The notes: generated by a model from the sequence alone, not told the origin. DNA of 64,000 nucleotides from Minisyncoccota bacterium (GCA_035510575.1 DATKGV010000004.1:88419-152418), one strand, 5' to 3'; counted from the stretch's first letter, positions 314 to 48,401 are shown. Program-made: numbers and translations.

Positions 314-3300
314 TTACGAATTATTAGCCAATTCTTCTTCAGTTTTTTCTTTTATTTTTCTTATTTTTTTGACGCCGAAGCCGGTACCTGCCGGAATCAG
401 ATTGCCAATAATGACATTTTCTTTGAGCCCGCGAAGATTATCAACTCCGCCGCGAATAGCGTTATTGATTAAGACACGATTAGTGTTTTGGAATGACGCA
501 GCAGAAAGCCATGACTTGGTTGTAAGCGAAACTTCAGTAATTCCAAGAACGATAGTTGAGGCCTCAGCTTTTTTGCCGTTTATAGCTTCCACGCGCTCAT
601 TCTCTTCAATAAGCTCTATCGCCTCGACTATTTCGCCGGGCGAGAATGTCGTATCTCCGGCATCTTTTATCTTTTTGCGCGAGAACATCTGGCGGATGAT
701 TATTTCAATATGCTTTCTGGAAATTGAGGCGCTTTGCAAATCATAAACTTTGTTTATTTCGCTCACGATATACTCTTCGGCTATTTCCTTGCCTCCATAT
801 TTGACAATATCATTGATATCGGCAGATCCGTCAGTAAGCAAGTCGCCTTTTTTAACCTTGCTTCCTTCTTTAACCAACGGCTGGCGCCTGAAGGCGACGA
901 CATATTCCATTTCGGATTTTTTAACGCCAGATTTTAACGTTGTTTGGGAAGACAAATCAGAAAGAACTTTTATAATTTTTTCCTTGCCATTATCCTTGAC
1001 TTCAATGACTTCGCCATCCGTAACAGAAATAACTGCCGGATTTTTAGGAACGCGCCTTTCAAATATTTCTTCAACGCGAGGAAGACCCGTGGTAATATCC
1101 ACAGTCGCCACGCCTCCGGCGTGGAATGTGCGGAGCGTCAGCTGAGTTCCCGGTTCGCCGATGGCTTGCGCGGCGATAATTCCGACGGCCTGCCCAAGCT
1201 CTATCATGCAGTTGCGTCCAAGATCAAGGCCGTAGCACATTCGGCAAATGCCATGGGTTGTTTCGCAAGAAAGCGGGGTTCTCACATGCGCTTCAGTAAT
1301 GCCCATCTTTTCAATCATTTTGGAATCTTCTTTCATAATTAGCGATCCCTTTTTAAATGCAACTTTGCCGCTCTTATCTTTGATATCGGCAAGCAAGACC
1401 CGCCCATGGACATACTTGGCTAATATTCCGCCAGTGGCGGTTATTTTTTTGCCATTTTTCGTGCCGCAATCTTCCTGCGTTATGACAACATCTTGAGCCA
1501 CATCCACCAAGCGTCGGGTAAGATATCCGGCCTTGGCGGTATTAAGAGCCGTGTCGGCAGCGCCTTTTCTGGAACCGTGAGTCGTAATGAAATATTCAAG
1601 AGGCGATAATCCTTCAATGTATGACGGAATAATCGGGAAATCAAGCGTTGCGCCGGAAGTATTGACAATCAAGCCCTTCATTCCGCACATTTGCACCAGA
1701 GAACCCATATTGCCGCGGGCGCCCGATGTGATAAGATCGTAAGTCGATCCTCTATTGTCCAATGTTTCAGGAATAATTTTTTCAATTTCCTTTTTCGCTT
1801 GCTCCCATATTTCGATCACTTTCTGATACTGTTCTTCCTCTGACAGAAGGCCTTCGCTGAATTGATCGCGGACAATTTCTTCTTCCTTGCGCGCCTTATT
1901 TACTATTGATGATTTGCCTTTCGGCACAGAAACATTATCAATGCCCCATGTCACTCCGGAATATGTGGCGTAATGATAGCCGAAGTCCTTTATTTTATCC
2001 AAGATTGAAGGCGTCGCATCGATGCTGTAGTGAACTATGAGCTCGTCAACAAGGAGCGACATGCGCTTGATGGTAATTTCTTCGTTTATAAATGGAAAAT
2101 CATCCGGGAAAATGCTGTTAAAGAACAATCGTCCGACAGTCGTCTCAAACGGCTTGCCTTCAAACTTTTTATATCTGGCTTTGTCGCTGCCAAGAACTTT
2201 TATCTTCGCTCTGAATGTTATTACTCCCAGATCAAACGCCGTTATAGCTTGATTTGGATTTGAAAATGCCATTCCCTCGCCTTTTTCTCCATCCATCAAT
2301 TTGGTCATCCAATAGCATCCAAGAACCATATCCATCTTAGGCATGACGATAGGAGTGCCGTCTTGGGGCTTGAGCAGATTTTTGTTTGATGCCATATAAT
2401 CATGAGCTTCTTTTTGAGCCATATCGGAAAGAGGCACATAGACAGCCATTTGGTCTCCGTCAAAGTCGGCATTGAAACCGGTGCATACTAGAGGATGAAC
2501 TTGAATAGCGTTGCCTTCGATAAGAATCGGATTGAAGGCCTGAATGCCCAAGCGGTGAAGCGTCGGAGCGCGATTGAGCAACACATATTTTCCTTTAATC
2601 ACTTCTTCAAGAATAGCCCAAACCTCCGGTATTCCTTCTTCAATCAGGCGATTGACGCCGCGAATATTGAAAGCCAGTTCTGTTTCAAGAACCTTGGCGA
2701 TGACGAACGGCCTGAAAAGTTCCAGCGCCATGTGCTTCGGCAGACCGCATTGATTGAGCTTGAGCTGAGGACCAACGACAATAACAGAACGGCCTGAATA
2801 ATCCACTCGCTTGCCGAGAAGATTCTGGCGGAACAGCCCTTGTTTTGATTTTAAATTATCTGAAAGGGATTTTAATGCGCGCTTCTGCGATGCGGATACG
2901 GCATGGGAATCATTCTGCTTGGCTATTGAATTGTCTATCAGCGCATCCACGGCTTCCTGCAAAATTCTTTTTTCATTGCGAAGAATAACGTCCGGCGCGC
3001 CTATTTCTTTCAATTTCTTCAAGCGATTATTTCGGTTGATGACTCGGCGATACAAATCATTCAGATCGGAAGTTGCGTGGCGTCCGCCGTCCAGCGCCAC
3101 CATCGGGCGGAGAGCCGGAGGAATGACCGGAATTACAGTCAAGAACATCCACTCGGGGCGGATGCCTGAAGCAATCATTGATCTTATTAAAGAAAGCCGT
3201 TTCTCGAGCTTCTCTTTTTCTAGGCTTGAGGCCTTCCCAAGCATGGCAAGGGTCTCGGTTCTTGTTTTCTCTAAATCGATATTCTTGAAAAGAGAATATA

Positions 3301-3952
3301 TCGCTTCAGCTCCTATATTCGCCTCGAAACAGCTTCCATATTTGAGTCCGAAATGATGATAAGCGATTTCATTAAGCACTTTTCCCAAGGTAATGTCGTT
3401 TATTTCCCTCTTGGTATTAGTCAAGAGTTCTTTTAATTTCTCTTTTTCTTCGTCATTGCTTGCGCTCTTTATTTTGGCTTTGAATTCGCTTTCAAGATTC
3501 TTGATTATTTTTTCTTTTTCCTCACTATAAACGTTTGTAATTATATATCCGGCAAAATATATGACCTTTTCAAGATCATTGACCGGTATATTCAAAAGGA
3601 CGGACATTCTGGAAGGAACCCCGCGCAAGAACCAAATATGGGCTACTGGGCTTGCCAATTCTATGTGGCCCATGCGATCGCGCCTGACTATCGAGCGAGT
3701 AACTTCAACTCCGCATTTTTCGCAGATGATGTCCTTGTAGCGTATGCGTCGGTATTTTCCGCAATAACATTCATAGTCCTTTTCAGGGCCGAATATGCGC
3801 TCATCAAAAAGCCCGTTGCGCTCGCTGCGGCCGGTTCGATAATTAATGGTCTCGGGCTTGGTAACCTCGCCATACGACCATTCGCGTATGCGTTCAGGGC
3901 TGGCCAGCTTGAGCGATATTGAATCAAAATTTGTTGTATCAATTGTTTTCAT
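314..3952 (-). CDS. rpoC: DNA-directed RNA polymerase subunit beta-prime
   Basis: The 1234-aa ORF carries rpoC hallmarks (ASPERIREWSYGEVTKPETINYRT, NADFDGDQMAV). The start was moved to the internal Met MKTIDTT (ATG rc of 3950..3952). The upstream 22 codons translate the rpoB-rpoC palindrome and overlap the rpoB stop. Confidence 0.95.
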   Translation of the reverse strand: MKTIDTTNFDSISLKLASPERIREWSYGEVTKPETINYRTGRSERNGLFDERIFGPEKDYECYCGKYRRIRYKDIICEKCGVEVTRSIVRRDRMGHIELASPVAHIWFLRGVPSRMSVLLNIPVNDLEKVIYFAGYIITNVYSEEKEKIIKNLESEFKAKIKSASNDEEKEKLKELLTNTKREINDITLGKVLNEIAYHHFGLKYGSCFEANIGAEAIYSLFKNIDLEKTRTETLAMLGKASSLEKEKLEKRLSLIRSMIASGIRPEWMFLTVIPVIPPALRPMVALDGGRHATSDLNDLYRRVINRNNRLKKLKEIGAPDVILRNEKRILQEAVDALIDNSIAKQNDSHAVSASQKRALKSLSDNLKSKQGLFRQNLLGKRVDYSGRSVIVVGPQLKLNQCGLPKHMALELFRPFVIAKVLETELAFNIRGVNRLIEEGIPEVWAILEEVIKGKYVLLNRAPTLHRLGIQAFNPILIEGNAIQVHPLVCTGFNADFDGDQMAVYVPLSDMAQKEAHDYMASNKNLLKPQDGTPIVMPKMDMVLGCYWMTKLMDGEKGEGMAFSNPNQAITAFDLGVITFRAKIKVLGSDKARYKKFEGKPFETTVGRLFFNSIFPDDFPFINEEITIKRMSLLVDELIVHYSIDATPSILDKIKDFGYHYATYSGVTWGIDNVSVPKGKSSIVNKARKEEEIVRDQFSEGLLSEEEQYQKVIEIWEQAKKEIEKIIPETLDNRGSTYDLITSGARGNMGSLVQMCGMKGLIVNTSGATLDFPIIPSYIEGLSPLEYFITTHGSRKGAADTALNTAKAGYLTRRLVDVAQDVVITQEDCGTKNGKKITATGGILAKYVHGRVLLADIKDKSGKVAFKKGSLIMKEDSKMIEKMGITEAHVRTPLSCETTHGICRMCYGLDLGRNCMIELGQAVGIIAAQAIGEPGTQLTLRTFHAGGVATVDITTGLPRVEEIFERRVPKNPAVISVTDGEVIEVKDNGKEKIIKVLSDLSSQTTLKSGVKKSEMEYVVAFRRQPLVKEGSKVKKGDLLTDGSADINDIVKYGGKEIAEEYIVSEINKVYDLQSASISRKHIEIIIRQMFSRKKIKDAGDTTFSPGEIVEAIELIEENERVEAINGKKAEASTIVLGITEVSLTTKSWLSAASFQNTNRVLINNAIRGGVDNLRGLKENVIIGNLIPAGTGFGVKKIRKIKEKTEEELANNS

Positions 3953-3965
3953 ATTGTTATTTGTT

Positions 3966-4007
3966 CCACATGTCGGACTTGTGGCTAGCCACAAGTCCGA
4001 CATGTGG
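3966..4007. repeat. 42-nt perfect palindrome CCACATGTCGGACTTGTGGCTAGCCACAAGTCCGACATGTGG in the rpoB-rpoC intergenic space
   Basis: The reverse complement, computed by hand, equals the sequence. It lies exactly between the rpoB stop (4018..4020) and the rpoC start (3952). Confidence 0.9.
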
Positions 4008-4017
4008 TCTTTTTCCA

Positions 4018-7000
4018 TTAATCATTCCGACTTCTTTTAAGATCAACATCGAGAGCCAGGCCTCGGAGATAATTCAGCAATACATTAAATGATGCCGGTA
4101 TATTCGGTTCTCCGATCGGCTGACCTTTAATAATGGCGTCAAAAGTCGCGGAGCGCCCCATGATATCGTCGGACTTGATAGTCAGCATTTCGCGAAGCGT
4201 ATAAGCGGCGCCGTGGCCTTCCAGAGCCCAGACCTCCATCTCGCCGAATCTTTGTCCGCCGCCTTGGGCCTTGCCGCCGAGCGGTTGCTGAGTAATAAGA
4301 GAGTAAGGGCCTATAGAACGCATATGCAGCTTGTCTTCAACCATGTGATGAAGCTTAAGCATGTACATATAGCCGATAGCGATATCTTGATTGAAAGCGT
4401 CTCCGGTGCGTCCGTCATACAGAGTCACTTTGCCGCTTTCGGGCAGCCCCGCTTTTACAAGTTCGGCTTTGATTTCCGGCACAGTCGCGGACGAGAAAGG
4501 AGGAATAATAGCTTGGTAGCCGAGAGTATGAGCGGCGTAGCCCAAATGCATTTCAAGAATCTGCCCCAAGTTCATGCGGGAAGGCACGCCGAGAGGCGTA
4601 AGAATTATGTCAATAGGAGTGCCATCCGCCATAAACGGCATTTCTTCTTCAGGCAGGATAATGGATATGACTCCTTTGTTTCCATGACGGCCGGCAAGCT
4701 TGTCGCCGACTGAAATATTTCTGACTTGGGCTATTTCAACAACTATCTTTTTGATAATGCCGGATTCAAGATTATGTCCTTGGTCGCGCGAGAAAATTTT
4801 CACTCCGACGACGCGTCCGCGCTTGCCATGCTCCAAGCGGAGCGATGTGTCTTTGACGTCGCGAGCTTTCTCGGTAAAAATAGATCGGAGCAAGCGCTCT
4901 TCCGGCGTAAGTTCGGTCTCGCCCTTAGGAGTAATTTTGCCGACAAGAATATCATTTTCTCCGACTTCGGCGCCGATAATCACTATTCCATCTTCGTCCA
5001 AATCCTTTAATTTATTCTCGCCGACATTCGGTATGTCGCGAGTGGTAATTTCAGGTCCGAGCTTCGTATCGCGAACGCTGCAGATGAATTCTGTAATATA
5101 AATGCTGGTAAATTTGCTTTGTTTAACTAACCTCTCGGATAATATGATGGCATCCTCATAGTTGGCGCCGCCCCACGACATGAATGCGACAAGAACATTC
5201 TGGCCGAGAGCTATCTGGCCGTTGCAGGTAGTGCTGGTATCGGCAAGAACCTCGCCTTTTTTGACGTGATCTTGGAGCGACACGCTCGGACGCTGATGAA
5301 AGATAGAAAAGTTGTTAGTGCGGGAGAAAGTGATAAGCGGATAAACGTGTTCTTTGCCTTTATCGTCTTTGACAATTATTTTTTTGGCATCGACATAAAT
5401 GACTGTTCCGCTTGTCTCTGAAATAATCAATCGTCCGGAATCGCGGCTGGCCGACTCTTCTATGCCGGTTGCAACCAGAGGAGCTTCGGGAATAACGCAT
5501 GGCAGCGCCTGCTTCTGCATGTTGCTTCCCATTAATGTTCTGTGAGCATCATCATGTTCTAGGAATGGAATCATCGAAGTAGCCACCGAAAAGGCCTGAT
5601 TGGTAGCTACGTCTATGTAGTCAATTTCACTGCGAGAAACCATTCCTGGATTGGTCTTGATGCGGGCTTCGACTCTGTCTTCTATAATATTGCCTTTTTC
5701 GTCATAATCAGTGCCGGCATGAGCAATATTGAATTTTTCTTCTTCAAGCGCATTCAAATAAACCACTTCATTGGTGATTTTTCCGTTCTTTACTTTTATA
5801 TACGGCGTTTCAATAATGCCAAATTCATTTATTTTGGCGTATGTTGAAAGGTGCAAGATAAGGCCGATATTCGGACCTTCAGGCGTATGAATAGGACATA
5901 CTCTGCCGTAGTGGGACGTGTGCACATCGCGAACTTCAAGTCCGGCGCGTTCGCGCGTCAATCCGCCTGGACCAAGCGCCGAGAGCGTTCGTAAGTGCTC
6001 AATTTCAGCCAGGACATTTTCCTGATTCATGAATTGCGAAAGTTGATTGGCGGTGAAAAATTCTTTTATGCGGGCTTGGAGCGGGCGCTGATTTATGATT
6101 TGAATTGGCATTGTCGTCCCAACATCAATAGTCGACATGCGGTCCTGAATATTTCGCTTTATCTGAGCCATGCCCATGCGTATTTTCTGCTGGAACATCT
6201 CGCCTATATAGCGCACTCGGCGCTGTCCTAAGTGATCGATATCATCGGCTTTGGCATTCAAAGTATTATTGAGCTCGACTATGTTTGAAATAATAGCTAC
6301 TATATCGTCAGCAGATATTGTGCGGCGTTCCATTTCCTTGTCATCCATGCTTTTGCCGAAACGCTTGTTAAAACGGAATCGGCCGACGGGAGAAAGATCA
6401 TAGCGCTCCCCTGAAAGCAAAGTATTTATGAATTCGCGGGCATTTTCGCCGGTCGCTAAATCGCCGTCCCTGAGGCGCTTGTATATCTCTATGAATGAAT
6501 CAGAAACAGTTTTGGCGGGGTCCTTTTCAATGCAGACCTTTATGACTTTTTCATCCAATTCGTTCCCGCCTGCTCCCGAACCTTCGTGAGGGCGGGCAGG
6601 TTTGCTGAATGCTTTCATTAGGCCTTCATTGGTCGCCAGTCCTAATACGCGAAGAAGGGACGCGATGGAAAATTTTCTTTTCTTGTCTATGCGGACATAG
6701 ATGCAGCCGTCCGGGTCGGATTCTATCTCGATCCAAACGCCTCGCGCCGGAATAATTTTCGCTCCGAAATAGCGCTTGCCTTTTATTTCTTGGTCGGTAA
6801 AAAATACGCCGAATGATCTGGTCAGCTGGGGAACAATAACGCGCTCTACCCCGTTGATTATGAAAGTGCCATGCTTGGTCATTAGCGGCACGTCAGCCAT
6901 GAATATTTCCTGCTCTTTGGAAATTCCCATGCTTTTATTAAGAAGCTTGACTCGCGCTTTGAGAGATCCTTCATAAGTCAGCTTGTTGATCTTTGAGTAT

Positions 7001-7227
7001 TCCTCGTCGAATTTCGGCTCGCCTAATGAGAATGAAGTGAAATCAAGCTGAAATTTCTTGTCGGAATAATCATTGATCGGGGAAAATTCTTTGAAAACTT
7101 CCGACAGGCCTTTTTCCACCAGCCAGTTGAAAGAAACCAGCTGATTTTCAATCAGATTAGGAAATGACACTAACGGCTTCTTATATCTGGCAAAATATTT
7201 CTTCTCTCGTTCAGCTGTTTTTTTCAT
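4018..7227 (-). CDS. rpoB: DNA-directed RNA polymerase subunit beta
   Basis: The 1081-aa ORF has conserved rpoB blocks (GPGGLTRERAGLEVRDVH, NMQKQALP, the GEMEVWALE region). The start was placed at MKKTAEREKK (ATG rc 7225..7227), which aligns with canonical rpoB N-termini. Confidence 0.95.
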   Translation of the reverse strand: MKKTAEREKKYFARYKKPLVSFPNLIENQLVSFNWLVEKGLSEVFKEFSPINDYSDKKFQLDFTSFSLGEPKFDEEYSKINKLTYEGSLKARVKLLNKSMGISKEQEIFMADVPLMTKHGTFIINGVERVIVPQLTRSFGVFFTDQEIKGKRYFGAKIIPARGVWIEIESDPDGCIYVRIDKKRKFSIASLLRVLGLATNEGLMKAFSKPARPHEGSGAGGNELDEKVIKVCIEKDPAKTVSDSFIEIYKRLRDGDLATGENAREFINTLLSGERYDLSPVGRFRFNKRFGKSMDDKEMERRTISADDIVAIISNIVELNNTLNAKADDIDHLGQRRVRYIGEMFQQKIRMGMAQIKRNIQDRMSTIDVGTTMPIQIINQRPLQARIKEFFTANQLSQFMNQENVLAEIEHLRTLSALGPGGLTRERAGLEVRDVHTSHYGRVCPIHTPEGPNIGLILHLSTYAKINEFGIIETPYIKVKNGKITNEVVYLNALEEEKFNIAHAGTDYDEKGNIIEDRVEARIKTNPGMVSRSEIDYIDVATNQAFSVATSMIPFLEHDDAHRTLMGSNMQKQALPCVIPEAPLVATGIEESASRDSGRLIISETSGTVIYVDAKKIIVKDDKGKEHVYPLITFSRTNNFSIFHQRPSVSLQDHVKKGEVLADTSTTCNGQIALGQNVLVAFMSWGGANYEDAIILSERLVKQSKFTSIYITEFICSVRDTKLGPEITTRDIPNVGENKLKDLDEDGIVIIGAEVGENDILVGKITPKGETELTPEERLLRSIFTEKARDVKDTSLRLEHGKRGRVVGVKIFSRDQGHNLESGIIKKIVVEIAQVRNISVGDKLAGRHGNKGVISIILPEEEMPFMADGTPIDIILTPLGVPSRMNLGQILEMHLGYAAHTLGYQAIIPPFSSATVPEIKAELVKAGLPESGKVTLYDGRTGDAFNQDIAIGYMYMLKLHHMVEDKLHMRSIGPYSLITQQPLGGKAQGGGQRFGEMEVWALEGHGAAYTLREMLTIKSDDIMGRSATFDAIIKGQPIGEPNIPASFNVLLNYLRGLALDVDLKRSRND

Positions 7228-7450
7228 ATAAAAAGAAAAACAAAAAAACACCAAGGCGACCAAACCTGTGCGTTATTATTTATTTATAATTGGCAGTGAT
7301 ATTGTTTTTAAGCACAAAAAATGCCTGCTACCCGCTTACAAAACTTATTAAATTAGTGCGATTGATGCCATAACTCAATCTAGTCAATCTGGGTCTGAGT
7401 ATACAGAAAAATAATTCTTTGTCAAGAAAGTTATCAACAGCATCATCGAA

Positions 7451-7540
7451 TTCCTCCTCCCCTGCGAAGGGGAGGATTAAGGAGGGGTGAATTAATTAAT
7501 GCACCCCCTCTGCCCTTTCGGGCATCTCCTTACAGGAGCA
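7451..7540 (-). promoter_or_regulatory. Cluster of four consecutive GC-rich hairpins in the rpoB 5' leader / RAYT 3' region (candidate structured RNA)
   Basis: Stems: CCTCCCC-TGCGAA-GGGGAGG, GGAGGGGTG-N11-CACCCCCTC, TGCCC-TTTC-GGGCA and CTCCT-TAC-AGGAG. On the minus strand the loops read GAAA and UUCGCA. A GGAGG segment is shared between alternative stems. The surrounding DNA is AT-rich. Confidence 0.3.
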
Positions 7541-7561: not shown

Positions 7562-7588
7562 AGTAAGCTAGGACAGTCCTAGCTTACT
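7562..7588. repeat. REP-like palindrome AGTAAGCTAGGACAGTCCTAGCTTACT (core AAGCTAGGACAGTCCTAGCTT)
   Basis: Near-perfect palindrome with an unpaired centre base. It overlaps the last codons and the TAG stop of the RAYT gene. Confidence 0.85.
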
Positions 7589-8259
7589 GAAGTGAAATAA
7601 TTTTCAACAAATTTTTGGAATGACTGCTTTAATTGAAAATAATCTGGAAATGCTACTTTATTTAAAATATTACCTTCCACTCTATCGAGACCAAGATAAT
7701 CAAAATAACTTGAATAATTATATGATTCAAGAAAATCTTTCATTGCTTTATTGTCAACATTTTTATTCTTATCCTGTTTTTCCCAACCAGAAAACTTTAT
7801 ATCAAATACATTTAGATGGATATATGCAAAAAGTTGTCGCATATAATTATCATCTGTTTTTATACATTTTGATTTAAAAGGCCCACCGAATAAAGCACCT
7901 TGTCTTTGATATTTTATATTGAAGAACATTGAATATCCTGTACCTAATTTTTTCATAAATTTAGTAATACCACTATCTATTTCCTGTCTAACCAAAATAT
8001 GAAAATGGTTTGCCATAAGACACCATGCGCCAATTGAAACAAGCGGTTTACCCTTATCTAAAATCATAACTTCAAAAAAAGACTTTTTTTGTTGATTTAT
8101 AAGATTATTTAATTTAAATTCCTCCTGAGAATTTGAAATATAAATAAGCATAATAAATCTTTCAAAATCATATTTTGATTTGAAAATAATTCTTTTATCT
8201 ATACCACGATTGTACAAATGATAATATTCGCCAGTGATAAATGGATCTTTTCGCAACAT
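7579..8259 (-). CDS. HUH-family Y1 transposase (RAYT / IS200-like TnpA)
   Basis: Motifs: YHLYNRG N-terminal block, HUH motif NHFHILV, and the catalytic Tyr block YIHLN (compare YIYINP in E. coli RAYT). Confidence 0.75.
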   Translation of the reverse strand: MLRKDPFITGEYYHLYNRGIDKRIIFKSKYDFERFIMLIYISNSQEEFKLNNLINQQKKSFFEVMILDKGKPLVSIGAWCLMANHFHILVRQEIDSGITKFMKKLGTGYSMFFNIKYQRQGALFGGPFKSKCIKTDDNYMRQLFAYIHLNVFDIKFSGWEKQDKNKNVDNKAMKDFLESYNYSSYFDYLGLDRVEGNILNKVAFPDYFQLKQSFQKFVENYFTSVS

Positions 8260-8268
8260 GTCTTGTAT

Positions 8269-8309
8269 TATATACCATAAGCTAGGACAGTCCTAGCTTA
8301 TGGTATATA
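8269..8309. repeat. REP-like palindrome TATATACCATAAGCTAGGACAGTCCTAGCTTATGGTATATA
   Basis: 41-nt near-perfect palindrome 10 nt upstream of the RAYT start. It shares the 21-nt core with 7562..7588. Confidence 0.85.
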
Positions 8310-8343: not shown

Positions 8344-11300
8344 TTAATTTGCTGCATCACTTGGAGGAACTACAGGATCTGGAGCAGATGTAGAATCAGG
8401 CGCTGCAGGCGGAGTCACAACTTGATCGCTTGGGGGAACTGTTGTATCGTCTGCAGGCGGAGTTACTGATGAATCACTTGCAGGAGCTGTCGAATCTGAA
8501 GCTGGAACCGTTGAATCGGTGGTTGCGGGTTCGGTTGCAGATGGTGCTGATGAACCCGAATTGTCTGCGGTAGAGCTTACATGCGCATTATTTAAAATTT
8601 GAATCAATTGCGCTTCGTCAATGCAGGTATTATTGATGCAGATTTCATTGCTGCTATGAATTGTCTTGGCATACAGATCAGCGATGCCATTGGCTTGATC
8701 AGCTAAGAATTGCGTGATGAGCGAACCTAATGAAGTAGCCGAAGTCGTATCAAGAGACGAAAGATCTTTTATTTTGAGATCCATTTCTTGAATGGCTTTA
8801 ACCGCGTATGGCATCATGCCTAAGTAGTTGAGTGATAGAAGATTGGTATTTGGATCGGTAGAAACCAAATCAGGGAAGATTTGCTTTACATCTTGAGCAA
8901 TGAAGCCGGCATGCTTGGCATCGGTGTCTTGTTCAACTTTCCAATTATACGTTACTGGAACTAGAGCAAGTATTTTGTCCAGTGTTGTTATTGGAGTCGT
9001 GCCAAGTTCTGTTTCCGTCCATGCCATGCCATCTAGAGTGTTGACGTTCTTTTTTAAATTCATGTCTGAACTGCAAGCAAAACCGCTTGATATCGGCACA
9101 ACATCGCAAGTTCCTGCGGAAGTTTGAAATCTTCCTACAATTATATTAGCCGTAGTGGAAGCCGAGCCGACATGGAGAAGATAGCCGGGAGCAGTATTGG
9201 AAATTCCGACATCGCCGTTGCCTAATATTCTCATCGCTTCCGTCATTGTCTGCAATGTCGTGCCACTTCCAAGAGTTTTGCCCGTTGAGAAAATTATGTT
9301 CGAAGCTCCTGTGCCTGTGCCTAGACCAGAGTTTAGCAATAGATTTCCGCCAACCACGTTAGAAACAGAAGTTCCAGCGACAGTTGAACCTGATTGAATA
9401 GTCAGATTATTAGGCGCGACGTCAGTGGCGGAATTTTCAATCCACATGGTTCGATCAGCGCCGGCTCCGAATGATAAAATATTGGTCGGCGTACTTGTAC
9501 CAATACCCAAAGTCGTAATGCTGCTATTGCCTATCACCACCTGGTTGCTGGCGGTAGTGTAAGCGGCATTTCCCAGAGCCATTGAGTTGATAGCGCCTAC
9601 AAGCTGGCTGGCGTTACTTCCGGCGTTAGCTCCCAAAAATGTATTCTGATAGCCGACTGTTATAGACGAACCAGCCGAATTACCAATACCCGTATTAGAA
9701 CCATTATTTCCAGAACCATTCGTGAAAGAAGAAAGAGCGGAAACTCCGACAGCGACATTAGCGCCCGCGGCAGTAACGTTAGGCAGAGCGTTAGTTCCAA
9801 AAGCCGTATTGCCAGTAGTAGTTGTTTTTGCCAAAGCCCCATTGCCAACAGCCGTATTATTTCCTCCTGAAATATTTGCCGCCAGAGTGTTCCAACCAAT
9901 CGCTATATTTTGCGAGCCTGATGTCAATACATTCATAGCTCCTATGCCGATGCCGACATTCTTATCACCAGTCATTGCTGGCGGTCTGGCTCCAATAAGA
10001 ATTGAAAGAGGGTTAGCTGTGCCGATGCTCCCAGCGTTATAAACCGAGAATAGAGAACCGCCATTAGCGTCTGCCACGTTGAGAGTTGGAACATTTACTG
10101 TCGTGGTGATTGTCCAGGTAGCGCCTATGCCATGAGTAAGCTTTCCACCGAAAGTAACCGTCACGCCGTTAGATAATGCTTGAGCCGCAAGAGTAATCGC
10201 CGTATCAGCCGAACTAGCTCCGCCGTCCACATTCCAAGTGAACATATCATAACCCTGTAAAGCGGAAATATTGACTGTACAGCCCGTTCCAGTTCCGCCA
10301 GTTGTCGCTACTACTCCCGTTGAATATCCTGATCCGCCAGTCAAAAGTGTCATCGCATTACATCCCCCGCTTGATAAGCTCGTAACCTTTACGGTCGCCG
10401 CGCCATTGCCGCCAGTCAAAGTCAAAACATCATTCACTGTATAACCTGAACCGCCGACTGATTTGGCGACTGTCTTGACCGGATTTATCTCACTGATAGT
10501 AACGACATAAGACGAATTAGTATTGCCGACATAAGTTCCGCCCGCAGTAGCGTCGTTCGTTCCTGAACCTGAGAATACAACCGCTGACCGAGTCGCCAAA
10601 GATTTTACATCAAGAGTGGCGACGGGAGAAGTATTATTTATCCCTAGACGGATATTCGCCCCGTCATAAGCGGAACTAGCCCCGAAAAATATCTTGCCTT
10701 TCGTAGCGTTTGAAGTAGAATTTAAAGTTAGGTTTTCACCAGCGGCAGTACCGCCGTAAACAGTTTGCCCGCCGGCAATGCCGGTAGCCAGATTATCAGT
10801 AATGGTGTTTGTGGAACGAGTTAAGCCCGTGGAAAAAGTAAGAGGCACCTCGTAAGCGTTAGCGTTAGTGAACGCGGCTGAACCAAGAGTTCCCCCGCCA
10901 GTTGGAATAGTTAAAGTCGCTCCCGCCGCCGGCCAAGTTAAAGTTCCCGCCCCGCCGTTATTGGTGAATGTTGTAGTGAAAGTGGCGTTAGAAACGGCCA
11001 CTGCTGTTCCGCCCACTGCCAAAGCGCCAACGTCGGAATAAGTCAAATTCGTGCCATTGATTTTGTAATGAGAACCAGTCGCAATATTAACATCTCCATT
11101 AACATCTAATTTGTAGTTAGGCGCAGTTATTCCTATTCCCACTTTTTGAGCGCTATCTATTCTCATCGCTTCAGTCAAAACAGATGGCGAAGCGTCAGTC
11201 GCTGTAGAAAATGACAAATAAGTAGGAATACGAGTAGAAGCCACTGTACCGGAAACTCCGACATCTATGCTTCCCATTTCAAGATAACTTGCTCCGTCAT

Positions 11301-13923
11301 ATCCCCTGAATAGCAAACGGCCTAACATATCACCTGTGTTTACTGAAAGAAGCGCAGATGGAGTTCCGCGCGCTTTCCAAAATCCCAAGCGGGCAGAGTT
11401 TGTGCCGTTGTTTATTTGTGATGACACAATTCCTCGCGGATCAGAAGTATCAGTAGTAACGACTTGAAGTTTTGTAAGAGGAGCGGTAGTTCCGATTCCC
11501 AGACGATTATTTGTCTCATCATAAGCTGAAGCTCCCATGATTATTAAACCTTTTGTAGCGTTTGAAGTAGAAGTTAAAGTTAGATTTCCTGAAGCGGCAG
11601 TATCGCCGACTAAAGTCGTTCCGCCTGCTATGCCGACATTGTTTTGAAGATAGCCAGTGAGAGATGCAGAAGTCAAATAAGCAACATTGCTTCCCGATGT
11701 TACAAGCCCGCTTGTTCCTACTGTTACATTATTATAAGTTCCTGCAGATGTTCCTGCAGAAGTTAGGAATCCGCCGTAATTTCCCAGATCATTTGTGAAA
11801 GAAGAAAGAGCGGTCGGGAAAGTTGCCAGAGACAAATCACCTCTGAAATATTGAGATGTCGTGCCGGTGGTGATCGTGTTTTGTTTGGCATTGAGGGCAG
11901 TTTGAGTAGCAGTTGATATTGGTTTGTTAGCATCAGATGTATTATCAACATTACTTAGTCCAACTTGAGATTTGGTTAGGCCAGTTAAAGATGAACCATT
12001 GCCATTTGGAGCCAGGAAAACTGTGCCGGCATCAGTAGTGTAGACGCCGTTGGTGACTGTGCCTGCTGTTAATCCTGCGGCGGTACCAGTAATATTTGTG
12101 CCGACTAAAGCAGAAGGAGTTCCAAGGTTGGGAGTGGCAAGCGTCGGAGAGTTTCCAAATACAAGAGATCCGCTTCCCGTTTCATCCGAAATGACTCCTG
12201 CTAATTGAGCAGAAGTGGTAGCGGCAAATGCGGACAAATTATTAGTCGTCAAGGCCACGGTACCTGTAAGATCCGGGAAGGTATAAGTTTTGTCGGAAGA
12301 AGAAAGATGCGCTACATCAAAGATTCCAAATAGTGTCGGCGAAGGGCCATTTTCCAGCATTTTCAGTCCAGCGGAAGAATTATTGAGAACAATATTATAA
12401 GGTGCGGTTTGATTCCAATCCTGAGTCAAAGGACCTAAAGAAAGGACATTAGAAATATTTTGTAAACCATTGCCATAAGATAAGTTTACATTAGCGGATA
12501 GTTGTACCCATTTGGCGAGTGTTCCTGAATAAGTAAATGAAATACCGTAATAAAGAGAACTGGAGTTTTCCACAAAGCGAGCATCACCGCTTGTTGGAGC
12601 AATGCCTGTATAAGTAAAGGCCCCAGGCGTACCGCCTGTCACATTAAATATATAATCTTTAAAACCAGCAAATGTGCCAAAAGGCGCAGTTGAGGATACC
12701 AGCGCCACGCCAAATCGGTCGCCCAAAACCAAAGAATCCAGTTTTACCCACGCGCCATTTTTATATTCTACTATATCGCCCGGAGCAAAAGCGGACCAAA
12801 CACCGGTGTTTCCGCCTGTGTCAATGATATAACCGTCGCCTTCAACAGTGGTTCCGACCGGTGTAGCGGAATTGGCAATAACATTCACAGCTTGAAGCCC
12901 TGTTTTCCAATTCAATCCCATGGCATTATTATCAACGTATGTTTTTACCGCATTTTGCGTTGGATAGAGCGTGTTAGAGGTGCCAAGAGATGTGTTCGTA
13001 GATTTATTGGCAACATCTTCTGGTGTAAACCCTAAGGCAGTATTTACGTCACTCCCAGTAATTCCAGAAATGTATCCGGCAGGATTGGTGGCATTGTAAG
13101 GAGTATAGCCGATAAGTGATGCCACAGAAATATCGCCAGCCCCTAAAAGATTATTAGAATTGATTGTTTTGATATTTGTGCCGGAAACAAGAGTATCTTG
13201 TTTACCAGAAATATCAGTCGTTTGAGTAGCAGCATTTATTGTGAAATTCGGATAAGTGCCGGTAACCGAAGTGATATTAGTTCCCGCTGAAATAGCGACG
13301 GTTTGGTCGGGAGCAATAGATATATCTCCACTACCCAAAAGCGAACTAGAATTGATTGTTTTGATGTTTGTGCCGGCAGGCAAAGTTACCGTGCCGGTAA
13401 AAGTCGGCGAATTGAGAAGTGCGTATAAGCTTGAATCAATTCCTCCCAAGGTCTTGGCATTGATGGCAGCTCCGCTTGAAGTAATACGCCCTCGCGGACC
13501 GAGCGTTTCAAAAGTTATATTATTAGATGAGACCTCCACTTGAAGATAGACGGTATCATTATCTTGGAAATTATAAGTTAGAGCATCAGGATAGCCCGAT
13601 CCTGTATCTCCGATATTCACATCAAAAACACCGTTGGTAACAGAGAGAGTAGCTGTGCCGGGCGAACCTGATGGCCAAAGTTTCGCGCCAGAACCGACAG
13701 TCGGATTATCCCAAATAGAAAATTTAAAATAATAATTTGTGCCTGTTCCTCCCAAAAGAACTCCGTTTGAGTCCGTTAGCCGGCCTTGATAACTAATGAT
13801 ATTAGGAACGCCGGCGGCAGCGTGAGCAACAGAAAAAGAGAAAACGCCCAATATGAACACCGCTAAAATGGCATAGATGCTCTTTGACAAAAAATTATAT
13901 CTCCTTTCAAACATACTTTCCAA
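8344..13923 (-). CDS. Giant (1859 aa) secreted/anchored surface protein with tail-fibre-like repeats and a C-terminal intramolecular-chaperone (peptidase S74-like) domain
   Basis: N-terminal hydrophobic signal/anchor segment. Long G/T/S/N-rich repeat blocks (NTAIG..AL, GIGTTAPxxKLxV). Near the C-terminus, SSDMNLKKNVNTLDG...LALVPVTYNWK...HAGFIAQDVKQIFPDLV...LSLNYLGMMPYAVKAIQEM matches the phage tail-fibre / endosialidase chaperone domain. This is followed by a Pro/Ser/Thr-rich tail. DNA-level internal repeats are visible, for example around 13140..13400. Confidence 0.8.
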   Translation of the reverse strand: MESMFERRYNFLSKSIYAILAVFILGVFSFSVAHAAAGVPNIISYQGRLTDSNGVLLGGTGTNYYFKFSIWDNPTVGSGAKLWPSGSPGTATLSVTNGVFDVNIGDTGSGYPDALTYNFQDNDTVYLQVEVSSNNITFETLGPRGRITSSGAAINAKTLGGIDSSLYALLNSPTFTGTVTLPAGTNIKTINSSSLLGSGDISIAPDQTVAISAGTNITSVTGTYPNFTINAATQTTDISGKQDTLVSGTNIKTINSNNLLGAGDISVASLIGYTPYNATNPAGYISGITGSDVNTALGFTPEDVANKSTNTSLGTSNTLYPTQNAVKTYVDNNAMGLNWKTGLQAVNVIANSATPVGTTVEGDGYIIDTGGNTGVWSAFAPGDIVEYKNGAWVKLDSLVLGDRFGVALVSSTAPFGTFAGFKDYIFNVTGGTPGAFTYTGIAPTSGDARFVENSSSLYYGISFTYSGTLAKWVQLSANVNLSYGNGLQNISNVLSLGPLTQDWNQTAPYNIVLNNSSAGLKMLENGPSPTLFGIFDVAHLSSSDKTYTFPDLTGTVALTTNNLSAFAATTSAQLAGVISDETGSGSLVFGNSPTLATPNLGTPSALVGTNITGTAAGLTAGTVTNGVYTTDAGTVFLAPNGNGSSLTGLTKSQVGLSNVDNTSDANKPISTATQTALNAKQNTITTGTTSQYFRGDLSLATFPTALSSFTNDLGNYGGFLTSAGTSAGTYNNVTVGTSGLVTSGSNVAYLTSASLTGYLQNNVGIAGGTTLVGDTAASGNLTLTSTSNATKGLIIMGASAYDETNNRLGIGTTAPLTKLQVVTTDTSDPRGIVSSQINNGTNSARLGFWKARGTPSALLSVNTGDMLGRLLFRGYDGASYLEMGSIDVGVSGTVASTRIPTYLSFSTATDASPSVLTEAMRIDSAQKVGIGITAPNYKLDVNGDVNIATGSHYKINGTNLTYSDVGALAVGGTAVAVSNATFTTTFTNNGGAGTLTWPAAGATLTIPTGGGTLGSAAFTNANAYEVPLTFSTGLTRSTNTITDNLATGIAGGQTVYGGTAAGENLTLNSTSNATKGKIFFGASSAYDGANIRLGINNTSPVATLDVKSLATRSAVVFSGSGTNDATAGGTYVGNTNSSYVVTISEINPVKTVAKSVGGSGYTVNDVLTLTGGNGAATVKVTSLSSGGCNAMTLLTGGSGYSTGVVATTGGTGTGCTVNISALQGYDMFTWNVDGGASSADTAITLAAQALSNGVTVTFGGKLTHGIGATWTITTTVNVPTLNVADANGGSLFSVYNAGSIGTANPLSILIGARPPAMTGDKNVGIGIGAMNVLTSGSQNIAIGWNTLAANISGGNNTAVGNGALAKTTTTGNTAFGTNALPNVTAAGANVAVGVSALSSFTNGSGNNGSNTGIGNSAGSSITVGYQNTFLGANAGSNASQLVGAINSMALGNAAYTTASNQVVIGNSSITTLGIGTSTPTNILSFGAGADRTMWIENSATDVAPNNLTIQSGSTVAGTSVSNVVGGNLLLNSGLGTGTGASNIIFSTGKTLGSGTTLQTMTEAMRILGNGDVGISNTAPGYLLHVGSASTTANIIVGRFQTSAGTCDVVPISSGFACSSDMNLKKNVNTLDGMAWTETELGTTPITTLDKILALVPVTYNWKVEQDTDAKHAGFIAQDVKQIFPDLVSTDPNTNLLSLNYLGMMPYAVKAIQEMDLKIKDLSSLDTTSATSLGSLITQFLADQANGIADLYAKTIHSSNEICINNTCIDEAQLIQILNNAHVSSTADNSGSSAPSATEPATTDSTVPASDSTAPASDSSVTPPADDTTVPPSDQVVTPPAAPDSTSAPDPVVPPSDAAN

Positions 13924-13992
13924 TTATACAATGATACAAGATTTTTTACAAGATTAAAACAGATTTAGGCGTTAATTATTGGGATATATCGG

Positions 13993-17279: not shown

Positions 17280-17310
17280 AATCAGCCATAAGTCCGACTT
17301 ATGGCTGATT
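17280..17310. repeat. 31-nt palindrome AATCAGCCATAAGTCCGACTTATGGCTGATT at the trmD 3' end, followed by a T-run on the plus strand
   Basis: The right arm encodes the last codons and the TAA stop of trmD. It shares the GTCGGACTT/AAGTCCGAC core with the rpoB-rpoC palindrome. Confidence 0.8.
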
Positions 17311-25928: not shown

Positions 25929-26627
25929 TTATTTTTCCAGCCAATCTTTAACTTCTAATGCAAGCTTGGCCGCTTCCTGCTCGGCTTCCTGCTTGCTGTG
26001 GCCTTTGCCCTCCGCAATGCGATCATCGCCGAAGAATATGCCGACGGTAAAATGCTTATCATGATCAGGGCCGGACTCGTTTAAAACTTTGTATGAAGGA
26101 GTTATATTCAAATATTCCTGGGATTTTTCCTGAATCAAGCTCTTGGCATCGCGCCACAGCTTCTTGGAAACAATAGTATCGACTTTGACAAGCAATGTGC
26201 GCGATATGAATTGCAAGGCCTTTTCATATCCTTGATCCAAATATACCGCTCCGACATAGGATTCGTAAGTATTGGCCAAGATATAGCTGCGAGCTTTGCC
26301 GATATCTTTGGCTTCGCCTTTTGAAAGAAGCAGGTAATCGTTCATTCCGAGAGATAAAGCTACTTCGCCGATAATAACGGCATTAACAAGAGCTGACCTA
26401 TAAGCGGTCAAGTCGCCTTCGTCGCGATCAGGATATTTTTTATACAGATAATCGGTGACGATGAGTTCAAGCACTGCGTCGCCTAAGAATTCCAAACGTT
26501 CATTGTGCGACAGCTTTGAATCGTTATTTTCATTTATATAGGAACGATGAATAAACGCCTGTTCGAGCAGTTTTTTGTTTTTAAAAAAAATATTTGTCTT
26601 GTTTTCGAATTCAGAAAAATCAATCAT
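25929..26627 (-). CDS. rnc: Ribonuclease III
   Basis: Signature ERLEFLGDAVLEL. C-terminal dsRBD-like region. Confidence 0.9.
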   Translation of the reverse strand: MIDFSEFENKTNIFFKNKKLLEQAFIHRSYINENNDSKLSHNERLEFLGDAVLELIVTDYLYKKYPDRDEGDLTAYRSALVNAVIIGEVALSLGMNDYLLLSKGEAKDIGKARSYILANTYESYVGAVYLDQGYEKALQFISRTLLVKVDTIVSKKLWRDAKSLIQEKSQEYLNITPSYKVLNESGPDHDKHFTVGIFFGDDRIAEGKGHSKQEAEQEAAKLALEVKDWLEK

Positions 26628-27593: not shown

Positions 27594-27597
27594 GATT

Positions 27598-27807
27598 TTA
27601 TTTTTTCTTTTTAGCTTGCTTCTTCTCTACTTTCTTTACCACATCTATAACCTTGCGCCCGTTGTAAAAACCGCAATTTTTGCAAATTATATGAGTTTCC
27701 TTTGCTCCCTTGCAATTTGAACACGTGGCAAAAACCTTGGCTTTCAAGGCATGATGTGATCGGCGGTTCCCCGTATGAGCTCGCGTATGTCGCATTCGTA
27801 CTACCAT
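27598..27807 (-). CDS. rpmF: 50S ribosomal protein L32
   Basis: RMRHTRAHTGNRRSHHAL N-terminal block plus a CxxC...CxxC zinc ribbon. Confidence 0.7.
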   Translation of the reverse strand: MVVRMRHTRAHTGNRRSHHALKAKVFATCSNCKGAKETHIICKNCGFYNGRKVIDVVKKVEKKQAKKKK

Positions 27808-30464: not shown

Positions 30465-30487
30465 TCCCATAGGTCTGACCTATGGGA
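30465..30487. repeat. REP-like palindrome TCCCATAGGTCTGACCTATGGGA
   Basis: Palindrome with arms of about 11 bp and an unpaired centre base. Lies 3 nt after the thrS stop and contains the TAG stop of RAYT2. Confidence 0.85.
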
Positions 30488-31205
30488 TTTGGTCATGGTC
30501 TAAATTAATCCAATTAAAAAGATCATTTATATGAGAATTCTTTAGATATTCAGGTAAAAATTTTTTATTAATAATTTTAATTTCTTTTCTATTTTCTAAA
30601 AAATAATCATAAAAACTGGAGTAGTAGTATTTTTTTAAATATTCTTTCGCTTTATTTTTATCTTTAATTCCCTTTTGTTTCCAGTCTGATTGAATTAATT
30701 TTATAGGGTTTAGATGTATATATGAAAATAAATAATTAAAATAGTTCTCTTCTTTTACAATTTTAGATTTAAATTTTCCTTCAAATAATGATCCAGTACG
30801 ACTATATTTTTTATTAAAGTACATTGCATAAGCAGTAGATAGTTTCCTCATGAATTCAGTAATTGGATTATATTCTTCTTCCCATAGGTCAGACCTATGG
30901 GAAATAACAAATAAATGAAAATGGTTAGGCATTAACACCCAAGCTAGTATAGATACAATAGGTGTTCCTATTTCAAAATCAAAAGCTTCAATTTTGGGAT
31001 TAACTATATTTTCACGAAAAACAAGCTTTCTTTTGGAATTACAGACATAAAGCAATTTAATAAAATGATCATAATCTTCTTTGTCTAAGAAAATATCATT
31101 TTTACCATTTCCACGATTATATAAATGGTAATATTCTTTACAAACTAAATTTTCTACTCTTAATCCCATAGTTATATTATATAATAATAGATACAAATCT
31201 CCCAT
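30480..31205 (-). CDS. HUH-family Y1 transposase (RAYT / IS200-like), second copy type, with an in-frame internal palindrome
   Basis: Motifs YHLYNRG, NHFHLFV and YIHLNP. The likely true start is MGLRVENL (ATG rc 31167..31169). The annotated ATG at 31203..31205 is itself created by the upstream palindrome. Residues SHRSDLWEE are encoded by the internal palindrome at 30879..30903. Confidence 0.7.
   Translation of the reverse strand: MGDLYLLLYNITMGLRVENLVCKEYYHLYNRGNGKNDIFLDKEDYDHFIKLLYVCNSKRKLVFRENIVNPKIEAFDFEIGTPIVSILAWVLMPNHFHLFVISHRSDLWEEEYNPITEFMRKLSTAYAMYFNKKYSRTGSLFEGKFKSKIVKEENYFNYLFSYIHLNPIKLIQSDWKQKGIKDKNKAKEYLKKYYYSSFYDYFLENRKEIKIINKKFLPEYLKNSHINDLFNWINLDHDQIP
30879..30903. repeat. 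Internal copy of the RAYT2 palindrome (TTCCCATAGGTCAGACCTATGGGAA) inside the RAYT2 coding sequence
   Basis: Same arms as the flanking copies, but the centre base is inverted (GGTCAGACC versus GGTCTGACC). It is in-frame and corresponds to an extra segment relative to RAYT1, placed right after the HUH motif. Confidence 0.85.
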
Positions 31206-31225
31206 AGGTCTGACCTATGGGAGAT
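31197..31225. repeat. REP-like palindrome ATCTCCCATAGGTCTGACCTATGGGAGAT upstream of RAYT2
   Basis: Palindrome with 14-bp arms and the same core as 30465..30487. Confidence 0.85.
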
Positions 31226-31263
31226 TTAGTTAACTTATAAACCAAGAAAAATCTTAAATTAAT

Positions 31264-46016: not shown

Positions 46017-46037
46017 AAATAATTTAATTTCTCTTAG

Positions 46038-46071: not shown

Positions 46072-46081
46072 TTTTGTTATT

Positions 46082-48398: not shown

Positions 48399-48401
48399 GA
48401 A

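Follow-up and report, generated by a model that had tools for sequence, protein, structure and literature searches.

A 42-nt palindrome between rpoB and rpoC of a Minisyncoccota bacterium is probably a REPIN-like doublet of a REP/RAYT-type system in Patescibacteria

How does a perfect 42-nt palindrome come to lie in the short spacer between rpoB and rpoC, i.e., within an essential operon, and does it act there? The question is raised by a stretch of 64,000 nt from a Minisyncoccota bacterium (GCA_035510575.1, DATKGV010000004.1:88419-152418), which was analysed as a whole and is called the window in the following; positions without further label are counted from its first letter, while loci fetched from other assemblies are labelled L plus a number. 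Our answer is that the 42-mer is probably a lineage-specific doublet of the REPIN kind, i.e., a pair of inverted repetitive extragenic palindromes (REPs), and that it belongs to a REP/RAYT-type system (RAYT: REP-associated tyrosine transposase) widespread in Patescibacteria (Paceibacterota / Nomurabacteria).

The palindrome covers positions 3966-4007. Its two 21-nt arms are 100% complementary with 0 nt between them, and 19 bp are formed in the predicted fold, which bears out the perfect dyad that an earlier note, made from the sequence alone, had reported between the two RNA polymerase genes. The same note had the palindrome fill the whole spacer. This has to be corrected, since the spacer measures 65 nt, i.e., 10 nt and 13 nt remain beside the 42-mer. 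On the sense (minus) strand, the spacer reads UGGAAAAAGA, 42-mer, AACAAAUAACAAU, followed by the AUG of rpoC. The respective RNA is predicted to fold into a 19-bp helix with a CUAG loop (-37.8 kcal/mol, z -7.8). The hairpin is self-contained in this fold, that is, the rpoC leader and start codon stay unpaired. As single-stranded DNA (ssDNA), the 42-mer folds with -23.1 kcal/mol.

When the 21-nt arm is searched with up to three mismatches, 3 matches are found in the window compared to 0 in 100 shuffled versions, and the window holds 35 perfect, near-loopless hairpin seeds of 11 bp, compared to 0.34 in simulated sequence. Chance is therefore excluded. Neither is the 42-mer an assembly artefact, because two independent JGI assemblies of the same species (L120, L123) carry an identical spacer; L120 also encodes a protein identical to the rpoB product of the window. 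An Rfam scan of the window gave no family at threshold, and the sub-threshold matches on the palindrome represent a generic hairpin.

Whether the element is an old part of the operon was assessed in relatives. A metagenome scan with the N-terminus of rpoC provided 80 related loci (59-88% identity), of which 76 allowed both gene ends to be located. Here, the rpoB-rpoC spacer is mostly 0-33 nt long (at most 33 nt in 62/76), and none of the 76 spacers contains this palindrome or any element of its repeat family (family A, see below). In the closest relatives, including L121 and L122 (89% identity), both gene ends align and the gap falls exactly at the 42-mer. Without the 42-mer, the spacer of the window would measure 23 nt, which is typical of the group. 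Judged by these alignments, the 42-mer is an insertion, made in this species' lineage, into an rpoB-rpoC spacer of formerly about 23 nt, rather than a conserved site of operon control. The idea of the earlier note that it could be a processing or attenuation site is not supported for an ancestral feature of the operon, given the lack of conservation at the site and of a U-tract on the sense strand; an RNA role acquired later is weighed below.

Other occupants of the same junction were noticed along the way. Insertions of 660-1160 nt with whole open reading frames (ORFs) lie between rpoB and rpoC in four relatives (L056, L081, L093, L100), and L040 has a 67-nt spacer (1434-1500) with a different, imperfect palindrome (GTCGCGC..GCGCGAC).

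Each 21-nt arm of the doublet closely resembles a 23-nt hairpin repeat, AGCCAYAAGTCSGACTTRTGGCT, which we call family A. The family-A unit is a perfect palindrome of 23-25 nt (YAGCCAYAAGTCSGACTTRTGGCTR), and the 42-mer can be described as two inverted 19-nt family-A cores with CTAG as their junction. One pair of the stem varies among single units (singlets), with 22 C-G, 18 T-A and only 1 mismatched case, i.e., it covaries. The left arm (CCACATGTCGGACTTGTGGCT) equals the singlet consensus except for one base. The base that sets each arm apart from the singlet weakens the small hairpins, while the long hairpin stays perfect: a single arm folds weakly as ssDNA (-3.8 kcal/mol vs. -10 for a true singlet), and fold comparison strongly favours the long hairpin over two small ones.

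The window contains two family-A loci, namely the doublet and a singlet at the stop codon of trmD. The earlier note had linked both by their common GTCGGACTT core. The relation is in fact stronger than claimed and extends beyond this core, since the trmD site matches the whole doublet arm at 18/21 positions. No T-run follows the trmD hairpin on the trmD strand. The GTCGGACTT sequence occurs once more within rpoB (4168-4176) and lacks a partner arm there; we treat it as a chance or decayed match and not as a family member. Beyond the window, about 3.3 kb to the left (L123) and about 5.8 kb to the right (L125) are without a further family-A copy.

Family A is dispersed among related genomes. We scanned GTDB, with one genome per species, for the degenerate 21-nt pattern CCAYAWGTCGGACTTRTGGCT, for which about 2 chance matches are expected. 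The scan identified 36 loci in 20 genomes, 18 of them from named Patescibacteria lineages and 2 labelled only 'MAG: bacterium' (metagenome-assembled genome). The lineages comprise Nomurabacteria, Paceibacterota, Parcubacteria and two Saccharibacteria, and several genomes show 4-8 family-A copies within the 8-kb stretches that were fetched. The search for further copies, as proposed by the earlier note, thus has a divided outcome: a dispersed repeat is found across related genomes, with only two family loci in the 64 kb studied here. A viral contig collection gave no match to the family-A pattern, such that carriage by phages was dropped.

The doublet itself recurs as well (Table 1). The exact 42-mer (42/42) is present in three other species, in operon spacers that are not homologous to rpoB-rpoC, and close variants are found at two further junctions. 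Copies between genes have a common geometry: the hairpin begins 0-10 nt past the stop codon and ends 9-14 nt ahead of the ATG. The flanks are not symmetric and have the same orientation relative to the genes in 8/8 doublets (..WGA[42]A(A/G)CAAA.. in sense direction), with GA directly before the doublet in 7/8 and AACAAAUA as start of the 3' flank common to doublets at non-homologous sites. Translation or transcription operons host 4 of the 6 distinct doublet sites. None of the 8 doublet sites shows a target-site duplication; the flanking sequences (..GA / AAC..) are not duplicated. The missing duplication and the uniform orientation of the flanks are as expected for single-strand transposition by an HUH enzyme. 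A miniature inverted-repeat element derived from a DDE transposon was considered and rejected, given that the whole element is one inverted repeat and that the 8 sites are free of target-site duplications. Likewise, the nested insertion of one unit into the apex of another was dropped, as insertions in coding sequences show the unit to be defined from foot to foot.

Presence of family members differs between related genomes at other places, too. At rnc-smc, RAAC4_OD1_1 (L034) has a 66-nt spacer with a doublet variant, while the same junction is empty in the window, whose rnc is 81% identical to that of RAAC4_OD1_1. Compared to PheT of the window, PheT of L035 has a clean singlet insertion of 24 nt (8 codons). 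Taken with rpoB-rpoC, these differences at the sequence level indicate mobility.

The window holds two genes that code for RAYT-like Y1 HUH transposases, 43% identical to each other; we refer to them as Y1 genes no. 1 and no. 2. Each is flanked by palindromes of its own family (B and C, respectively; Table 1). A tblastn search found nine more Y1 homologues in the fetched loci. Five of them (L019, L021, L029, L010, L031) have family-A hairpins both upstream and downstream, and the genes in L036, L008, L009 and L017 are flanked by four further palindromes. The HUH motif and the catalytic tyrosine are invariant (N84 H85 F86 H87, Y146), and Pfam Y1_Tnp is matched by 9/9 members tested; gene no. 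1 scores 27.1 bits (cutoff 23). When the family profile is compared with PDB sequences, the best match is 4ER8 (E 0.063). An AlphaFold model of the gene no. 2 product (pLDDT 80, pTM 0.82) again has 4ER8, the E. coli TnpA-REP with its REP hairpin, as top Foldseek match (E 5.9e-6), followed by IS200/IS605 transposases. By sequence and predicted fold, the proteins are thus Y1 HUH enzymes closest to RAYT. At 90% clustering, the family comprises more than 5,000 members; every named match belongs to the Patescibacteria, and JGI labels a few as RayT. These observations agree with the further proposal of the earlier note, a REP-like family inserted into an essential operon: the element is absent in the 76 relatives, its arms are dispersed in 20 genomes, and its units flank Y1 genes.

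Within the Y1 family, a clade is marked by the peptide SH(K/R)SDLW. Every Y1/RAYT-like gene of this clade contains an in-frame internal copy of its own flanking palindrome, which forms an 8-codon insert right after the HUH motif and encodes the SH(K/R)SDLW peptide (window 30879-30903, L021 4617-4635, L019 7319-7337, L029 3231-3249, L010 310-328, L031 2995-3013). The internal copy covaries with the flanking ones (CCCATAGG, CCAT and CCAC types), and among 35 homologues the conservation of the peptide is 90% or higher. The Y1 gene of L009 has its internal copy at a different position.

Family-A units are also found in frame within housekeeping genes of other Patescibacteria (Table 1); a singlet has no stop codon in three frames of either strand. 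Some of these genes show further variants. The LigA position that holds a family-A hairpin in L013 holds a different palindrome (TTTCAGCAAG..CTTGCTGAAA) in L026 (309-2345), and LigA of L013 has a 21-aa insert made of two AAGGTCWGACCTT palindromes, such that KRSDLK is encoded twice. Degenerate or variant units of ACATGT type (MSDMW) are located at different positions of PheT in the window (34721-34739) and in L035 (3024-3042).

Combined, these findings suggest how the rpoB-rpoC doublet might have arisen. A cognate Y1 HUH tyrosine transposase would recognise family-A repeats as folded ssDNA and would move them in a strand-specific manner without target-site duplication; mobilisation by a family-A enzyme of this kind is what we infer from the association of genes and repeats and from the predicted fold. 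Once inserted, the doublet would be co-transcribed in the rpoBC mRNA, where its 19-bp hairpin would lie between rpoB (stop codon 10 nt upstream) and rpoC (start codon 13 nt downstream). RNA polymerase would presumably read through the hairpin, which would make the insertion tolerable in an essential operon, and the doublet would be a tolerated passenger of the rpoBC transcript. Effects on rpoB and rpoC expression would be secondary, e.g., a barrier to 3' exonucleases or a brake on termination and re-initiation. E. coli REPs protect upstream mRNA from 3' exonucleases and disturb termination when located within about 15 nt of the stop codon. By analogy, the passenger hairpin may have side effects of both types.

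Several observations weigh against a REPIN-like doublet. Copy number is low: by exact pattern, related genomes have up to 8 family-A copies, and two near-complete genomes of about 0.7 Mb have one exact match each, while classical REPs number in the hundreds. A family-A transposase gene was not seen within the window, where the two Y1 genes carry family-B and family-C hairpins, respectively. The best NCBIfam match of Y1 gene no. 1 is indeed the REP-associated tyrosine transposase, with 26.4 bits vs. a cutoff of 80, and because of this difference the protein is not a RAYT equivalog. The GT[AG]G foot of canonical REPs is absent: family A is flanked by YAG...CTR, while GTGG is confined to the stem of CCAC-type copies and replaced by ATGG in those of CCAT type. 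The mismatch within each arm weakens the very hairpin that a RAYT would be expected to recognise, and transposition of family A is deduced from sequence comparison rather than observed. Finally, the 42-mer is identical (42/42) at the orthologous rplN-rplX junctions of L004 and L027, while the genes on either side agree in only 45% and 55% of their third-codon positions and the short flanks of the 42-mer differ as well. Such invariance would not be expected of a neutral selfish relic. It could reflect strong constraint, imposed either by a function or by a trans-acting factor's specificity, but recent independent acquisition at a preferred target and homogenisation of copies are possible as well.

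The identity at rplN-rplX leads to the alternative that deserves most attention, although we consider it unlikely: the 19-bp helix may have been kept as a processing or stability element, e.g., as a target of RNase III or a barrier to 3' exonucleases. Such an acquired RNA function is compatible with a mobile origin and would give the upstream and the downstream cistron of a highly expressed operon separate fates. It would account for the 42/42 identity despite 45-55% third-codon identity, for identical 42-mers at non-homologous sites in four species, for the 4/6 sites in translation or transcription operons, for the regular geometry from stop codon (0-10 nt to the hairpin) to ATG (another 9-14 nt), and for the arm mismatch, which disfavours two small hairpins and favours the long helix. 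RNase III is at hand, as the earlier note had rightly listed rnc in the window (minus strand), and in RAAC4_OD1_1 one doublet variant directly follows rnc; in Neisseria, Correia/NEMIS elements are reportedly cleaved by RNase III within mRNAs. On the other hand, the operon does not need the element, as the rpoB-rpoC spacers of 76 relatives do without it, and identity could equally be due to homogenisation or to a recent spread towards a preferred target. An RNase III site calls for an extended helix of about two turns; 19 bp are at the lower end for known substrates. A more far-reaching version, which we find doubtful, treats the 42-mer with its short asymmetric flanks as a mobile intercistronic RNA module (hairpin plus A-rich leader) that Patescibacteria would have co-opted for the operons they express most strongly (rpoBC, S10/spc ribosomal protein operons, tuf), e.g., to stabilise the mRNA or to have it processed in the manner of RNase III; its sequence would be held invariant across species, and its spread would depend on a RAYT-like enzyme whose gene has an in-frame hairpin copy. 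An attenuator or terminator between rpoB and rpoC is very improbable. Although a hairpin of this stability (-37.8 kcal/mol) could pause RNA polymerase, the sense strand continues with AACAAAUAACAAU without U-tract, the terminator scan calls the plus (antisense) strand only, the essential rpoC has no promoter-like site of its own in the spacer, and relatives lack the hairpin. The plus-strand call, i.e., the listing of 3966-4007 as terminator-like on that strand, is what could speak for a terminator of antisense transcription into rpoB, formed by the hairpin and the plus-strand T-run (TCTTTTTCC). The T-run of the trmD singlet is antisense, too, and other doublets have T-rich antisense flanks; however, T-richness is the complement of the A-rich sense spacers general in this genome and the tracts vary in quality between sites (TCTTACT, TCATATT), such that we regard this reading as improbable.

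Two alternatives concern the DNA and the protein level. Perfect dyad symmetry is also what one would expect of a double-stranded operator for a dimeric rpoC regulator, but the same sequence is present in coding regions, beside transposase genes and at unrelated operons of other species, the spacer has no promoter, and compensatory variation of the stem is typical of hairpins; an operator is hence next to excluded. The palindrome could, on the other hand, be coding. An alternative in-frame ATG overlaps the rpoB stop (UAAUG, Table 1), and a start at this ATG 4018 would add a 22-aa N-terminal extension to the beta' subunit that is encoded by the element (MEKDHMSDLWLATSPTCGTNNN). The frame from ATG 4018 is open and in phase with rpoC, two JGI gene calls start there, family units are tolerated in frame in PheT, CysS, LigA, Fmt, RecJ and Y1 genes, and one doublet resides inside a Jag/KhpB-like protein. 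Against this, the conserved MKTIDTTN start, from whose residue 1 the rpoC homologues align, directly follows a typical A/U-rich leader, doublets elsewhere (L004, L008) either are not in frame or meet a stop codon ahead of the ATG of the downstream gene, and database-search proteins of other taxa lack the N-terminal extension. The organism hardly uses Shine-Dalgarno (SD) sequences: an SD-like motif precedes only 4 of the 41 window genes, and leaders are A/U-rich. In such an organism, a hairpin 11 nt past the alternative ATG should block initiation. The ATG at 4018 is judged less likely because this hairpin of -38 kcal/mol begins 11 nt downstream; the start at 3952 is thus more likely, and a beta' subunit with an element-encoded extension is rather improbable, i.e., translation of the palindrome is unlikely. 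A census of the palindrome peptide by word-indexed protein search gave no candidates in an index of limited coverage (gene calls of L120 and L123 contain the peptide), and a HMMER search with the 30-aa N-terminus of the long form among 1.84 billion representatives matched only unrelated repeat proteins. The exact look-up of the short-form rpoC protein gave no record because gene callers take the long form.

Among known systems, the proposed REPIN-like doublet compares best with REP/REPIN elements and their RAYT (TnpA-REP) enzymes as described for Enterobacteria and Pseudomonas (Nunvar 2010, PMC2817692; Bertels & Rainey 2011, PMC3116915; Messing 2012, PMC3479197; Quentin 2018, PMC6006769). Both have short hairpin repeats mostly just past stop codons, compensatory variation of stems, no target-site duplication, and an enzyme whose best structural match is 4ER8. 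As in REPINs, inverted units form a doublet and thus one long hairpin. One palindrome family per Y1 gene is the hallmark of a REPtron (Quentin 2018, PMC6006769), and here as well several families are found, each flanking its own single Y1 HUH gene. Unlike the known elements, the doublet is spacerless and only 42 nt long, copy numbers are low, and units are also located in frame within coding genes and the transposase gene itself. The GT[AG]G foot is missing, too; REP subclasses with atypical structures and without GT[AG]G have been described (Quentin 2018, PMC6006769). In contrast to RAYTs, the enzymes considered here (226-243 aa) have a C-terminal helical extension and score below the NCBIfam RAYT cutoff, and the host is a member of the Patescibacteria. 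That is, the departures from the classical REP picture are the zero-spacer 42-nt doublet, its invariance across species, in-frame insertions in coding sequences and the internal copy in transposase genes.

IS200/IS605 insertion sequences and their miniature derivatives (PATEs) share with our system a Y1 HUH enzyme, subterminal DNA hairpins and an oriented single-strand transposition without target duplication, which would apply here by deduction; the fold of the predicted model is shared with IS200/IS605 transposases as well. In contrast to IS200/IS605, the hairpins are dispersed without regard to the gene, which is not multicopy in our data and has no tnpB partner; instead of distinct left and right ends, there are perfectly palindromic repeats. 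Rickettsia palindromic elements (RPE), reportedly described by Ogata and co-workers in 2000, are said to lie in frame in housekeeping genes and between genes. Family A resembles them in both locations, whereas RPEs measure 100-150 bp and have no known transposase; a candidate transposase exists for our units, whose length is 24 nt (8 codons) or 42 nt. Correia/NEMIS elements of Neisseria and ERIC elements of enterobacteria are small palindromic mobile elements according to work reportedly by De Gregorio and co-workers. They are like the doublet in forming long hairpins within operon mRNAs (for the doublet, co-transcription is presumed), which can be targets of RNase III or RNase E and alter mRNA stability. 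They differ in size (100-150 bp), terminal inverted repeats and TA duplications from the 42-nt element, for which processing would be hypothetical.

The earlier note had also cited an RNase III-processed hairpin in the rpoB-rpoC spacer of E. coli as precedent, which is a mis-statement, as far as the secondary citation allows to tell: the cut documented for RNase III divides rplJL from rpoBC (Barry et al. 1980, cited through PMC13001810) and is therefore between rplL and rpoB. The control region there (attenuator plus RNase III site) is similar in being a structured RNA element of the same conserved operon, and it differs from our element, which is at rpoB-rpoC and not conserved even among close relatives. 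The rpoB-rpoC spacer of E. coli K-12 (L124, 4675-4750) measures 76 nt and has a GC-rich hairpin with a 10-bp stem; the 101-nt segment folds with -36.5 kcal/mol (z -4.1), and its sequence is unrelated to the 42-mer.

Table 1. Positions of the palindromes, their doublet and singlet copies and the neighbouring genes. Plain ranges with two dots refer to the window.
Feature	Position or locus	Strand	Remarks
rpoC	314..3952	-	1212 aa; conserved MKTIDTTN start; Pfam and NCBIfam
3' flank of 42-mer (sense)	3953..3965	-	AACAAAUAACAAU; A-rich, SD-less rpoC leader
Left arm	3966..3986		CCACATGTCGGACTTGTGGCT; imperfect hairpin by itself (one T.T / A.A mismatch)
Right arm	3987..4007		AGCCACAAGTCCGACATGTGG
5' flank of 42-mer (sense)	4008..4017	-	UGGAAAAAGA; rpoB stop to hairpin; ends in GA
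Alternative in-frame ATG	4016..4018	-	overlaps rpoB stop (UAAUG); ORF 314..4018
rpoB	4018..7227	-	1069 aa from ATG 7227; stop TAA 4020-4018; Pfam and NCBIfam
Family-B palindrome	7562..7588		AGTAAGCTAGGAC-N-GTCCTAGCTTACT; overlaps stop of Y1 gene no. 1
RAYT-like Y1 HUH transposase gene no. 1	7579..8259	-	226 aa; directly upstream of rpoB
Family-B palindrome	8269..8309		41 nt; 10 nt upstream of Y1 gene no. 1
Family-A singlet hairpin	17280..17310		AATCAGCCATAAGTCCGACTTATGGCTGATT; overlaps trmD stop codon (17299-17301); ssDNA -13.3 kcal/mol
rnc (RNase III)	25929..26627	-	stop 1 nt from smc-like start; no doublet at junction
Family-C palindrome	30465..30487		at stop of Y1 gene no. 2 (and of thrS)
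RAYT-like Y1 HUH transposase gene no. 2	30480..31169	-	229 aa; P0001; SH(K/R)SDLW-insert clade
Family-C palindrome	30879..30903		within Y1 gene no. 2, in frame, right after HUH motif
Family-C palindrome	31195..31227		upstream of Y1 gene no. 2
Doublet at rplN-rplX	L004 (JBBUEH01)		exact 42-mer
Doublet at rplN-rplX	L027 (CALRDL01)		exact 42-mer
Doublet at rplW-rplB	L024 (JBBUAS01)		exact 42-mer
Doublet at pilT-pilC	L026 (JBBUAS01)		exact 42-mer
Doublet at tuf-rpsJ	L008		close 42-mer variant
Doublet at rnc-smc	L034 (RAAC4_OD1_1)		close 42-mer variant
Doublet inside Jag/KhpB-like gene	L025 7541-7582		doublet of two perfect singlets
Unit in LigA	L013 1044-1062		in-frame family-A unit
Unit in CysS	L020 2997-3015		in-frame family-A unit
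Unit in Fmt	L036 4856-4874		in-frame family-A unit
Unit in PheT	L035 4049-4067		in-frame family-A unit
Unit in RecJ	L022 338-356		in-frame family-A unit
Units in Xth, RecO-like, DapF, PAP2	L015, L005, L009, L030 (respectively)		in-frame family-A units

Some observations concern the surroundings of these features. At several starts (e.g., 39568, 47821, 55930, 31169, 8259), a TATAAT-like box is located 6-12 nt before the ATG. Along with the small number of SD motifs, this suggests SD-independent, perhaps leaderless initiation. The rpoB leader (7398-7510) contains a strong promoter-like site on the minus strand (TTGACA-16-TATACT, 11/12 positions), and two more hairpins, GGGGTGCATTAATTAATTCACCCC and TCCTCCCCTTCGCAGGGGAGGA, are found between Y1 gene no. 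1 and rpoB. The region upstream of Y1 gene no. 1 (8344-17237) codes for a 1859-aa protein with Peptidase_S74 domain and for cohesin, dockerin, fn3 and Big_6 proteins.

Further palindromes were seen next to families A to C. A fourth family (TGCTACAAACTCTGCAC / GTGCAGAGTTTGTAGCA) is located at 46036-46073, 47858-47891 and 48397-48440 of the window and at 5708-5743 of L123, where a palindrome related to this family lies downstream of rpoC. It brackets a 579-aa ORF (46082-47821) that has no Pfam or NCBIfam match and adjoins a 160-aa protein with Cas2-like / PaaX_M domain; the GC content of this stretch is 30%. A near-perfect, AT-rich palindrome of 54 nt (27551-27604; 26-bp arms with one mismatch) is unrelated to the other families. 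In three MAGs, a repeat of about 50 nt that ends in a family-A singlet (CCTAGGGCTGRTAGTGCTGGACTAATTCAG-CCACAAGTCGGACTTGTGGCT) recurs every 810-900 nt (L012 46, 856; L039 4464, 5274, 6174; L014, L016, L018). These repeats separate small toxin/antitoxin-like ORFs, i.e., the arrangement is like that of a cassette array.

REP/RAYT systems are well known from Proteobacteria and some other phyla. For Patescibacteria, i.e., the candidate phyla radiation, we found no report of such a system in the searchable literature, and a large survey of Y1 enzymes makes no mention of Patescibacteria lineages (Quentin 2018, PMC6006769). The finding would extend REP/RAYT biology to the large uncultured radiation of the Patescibacteria. 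Their genomes are among the smallest and most streamlined, and still the 64 kb studied here hold at least four families of near-perfect hairpins and two RAYT-like genes. Even a coding sequence or one of the tightest spacers of an essential operon can take up such an element and stay intact. A practical consequence is that gene callers run rpoC and other genes through the palindromes and thereby report false N-terminal extensions. Lastly, the invariance of the 42-mer across species raises a question that can be tested, namely whether a selfish hairpin has been reused as a signal for RNA processing or stability.

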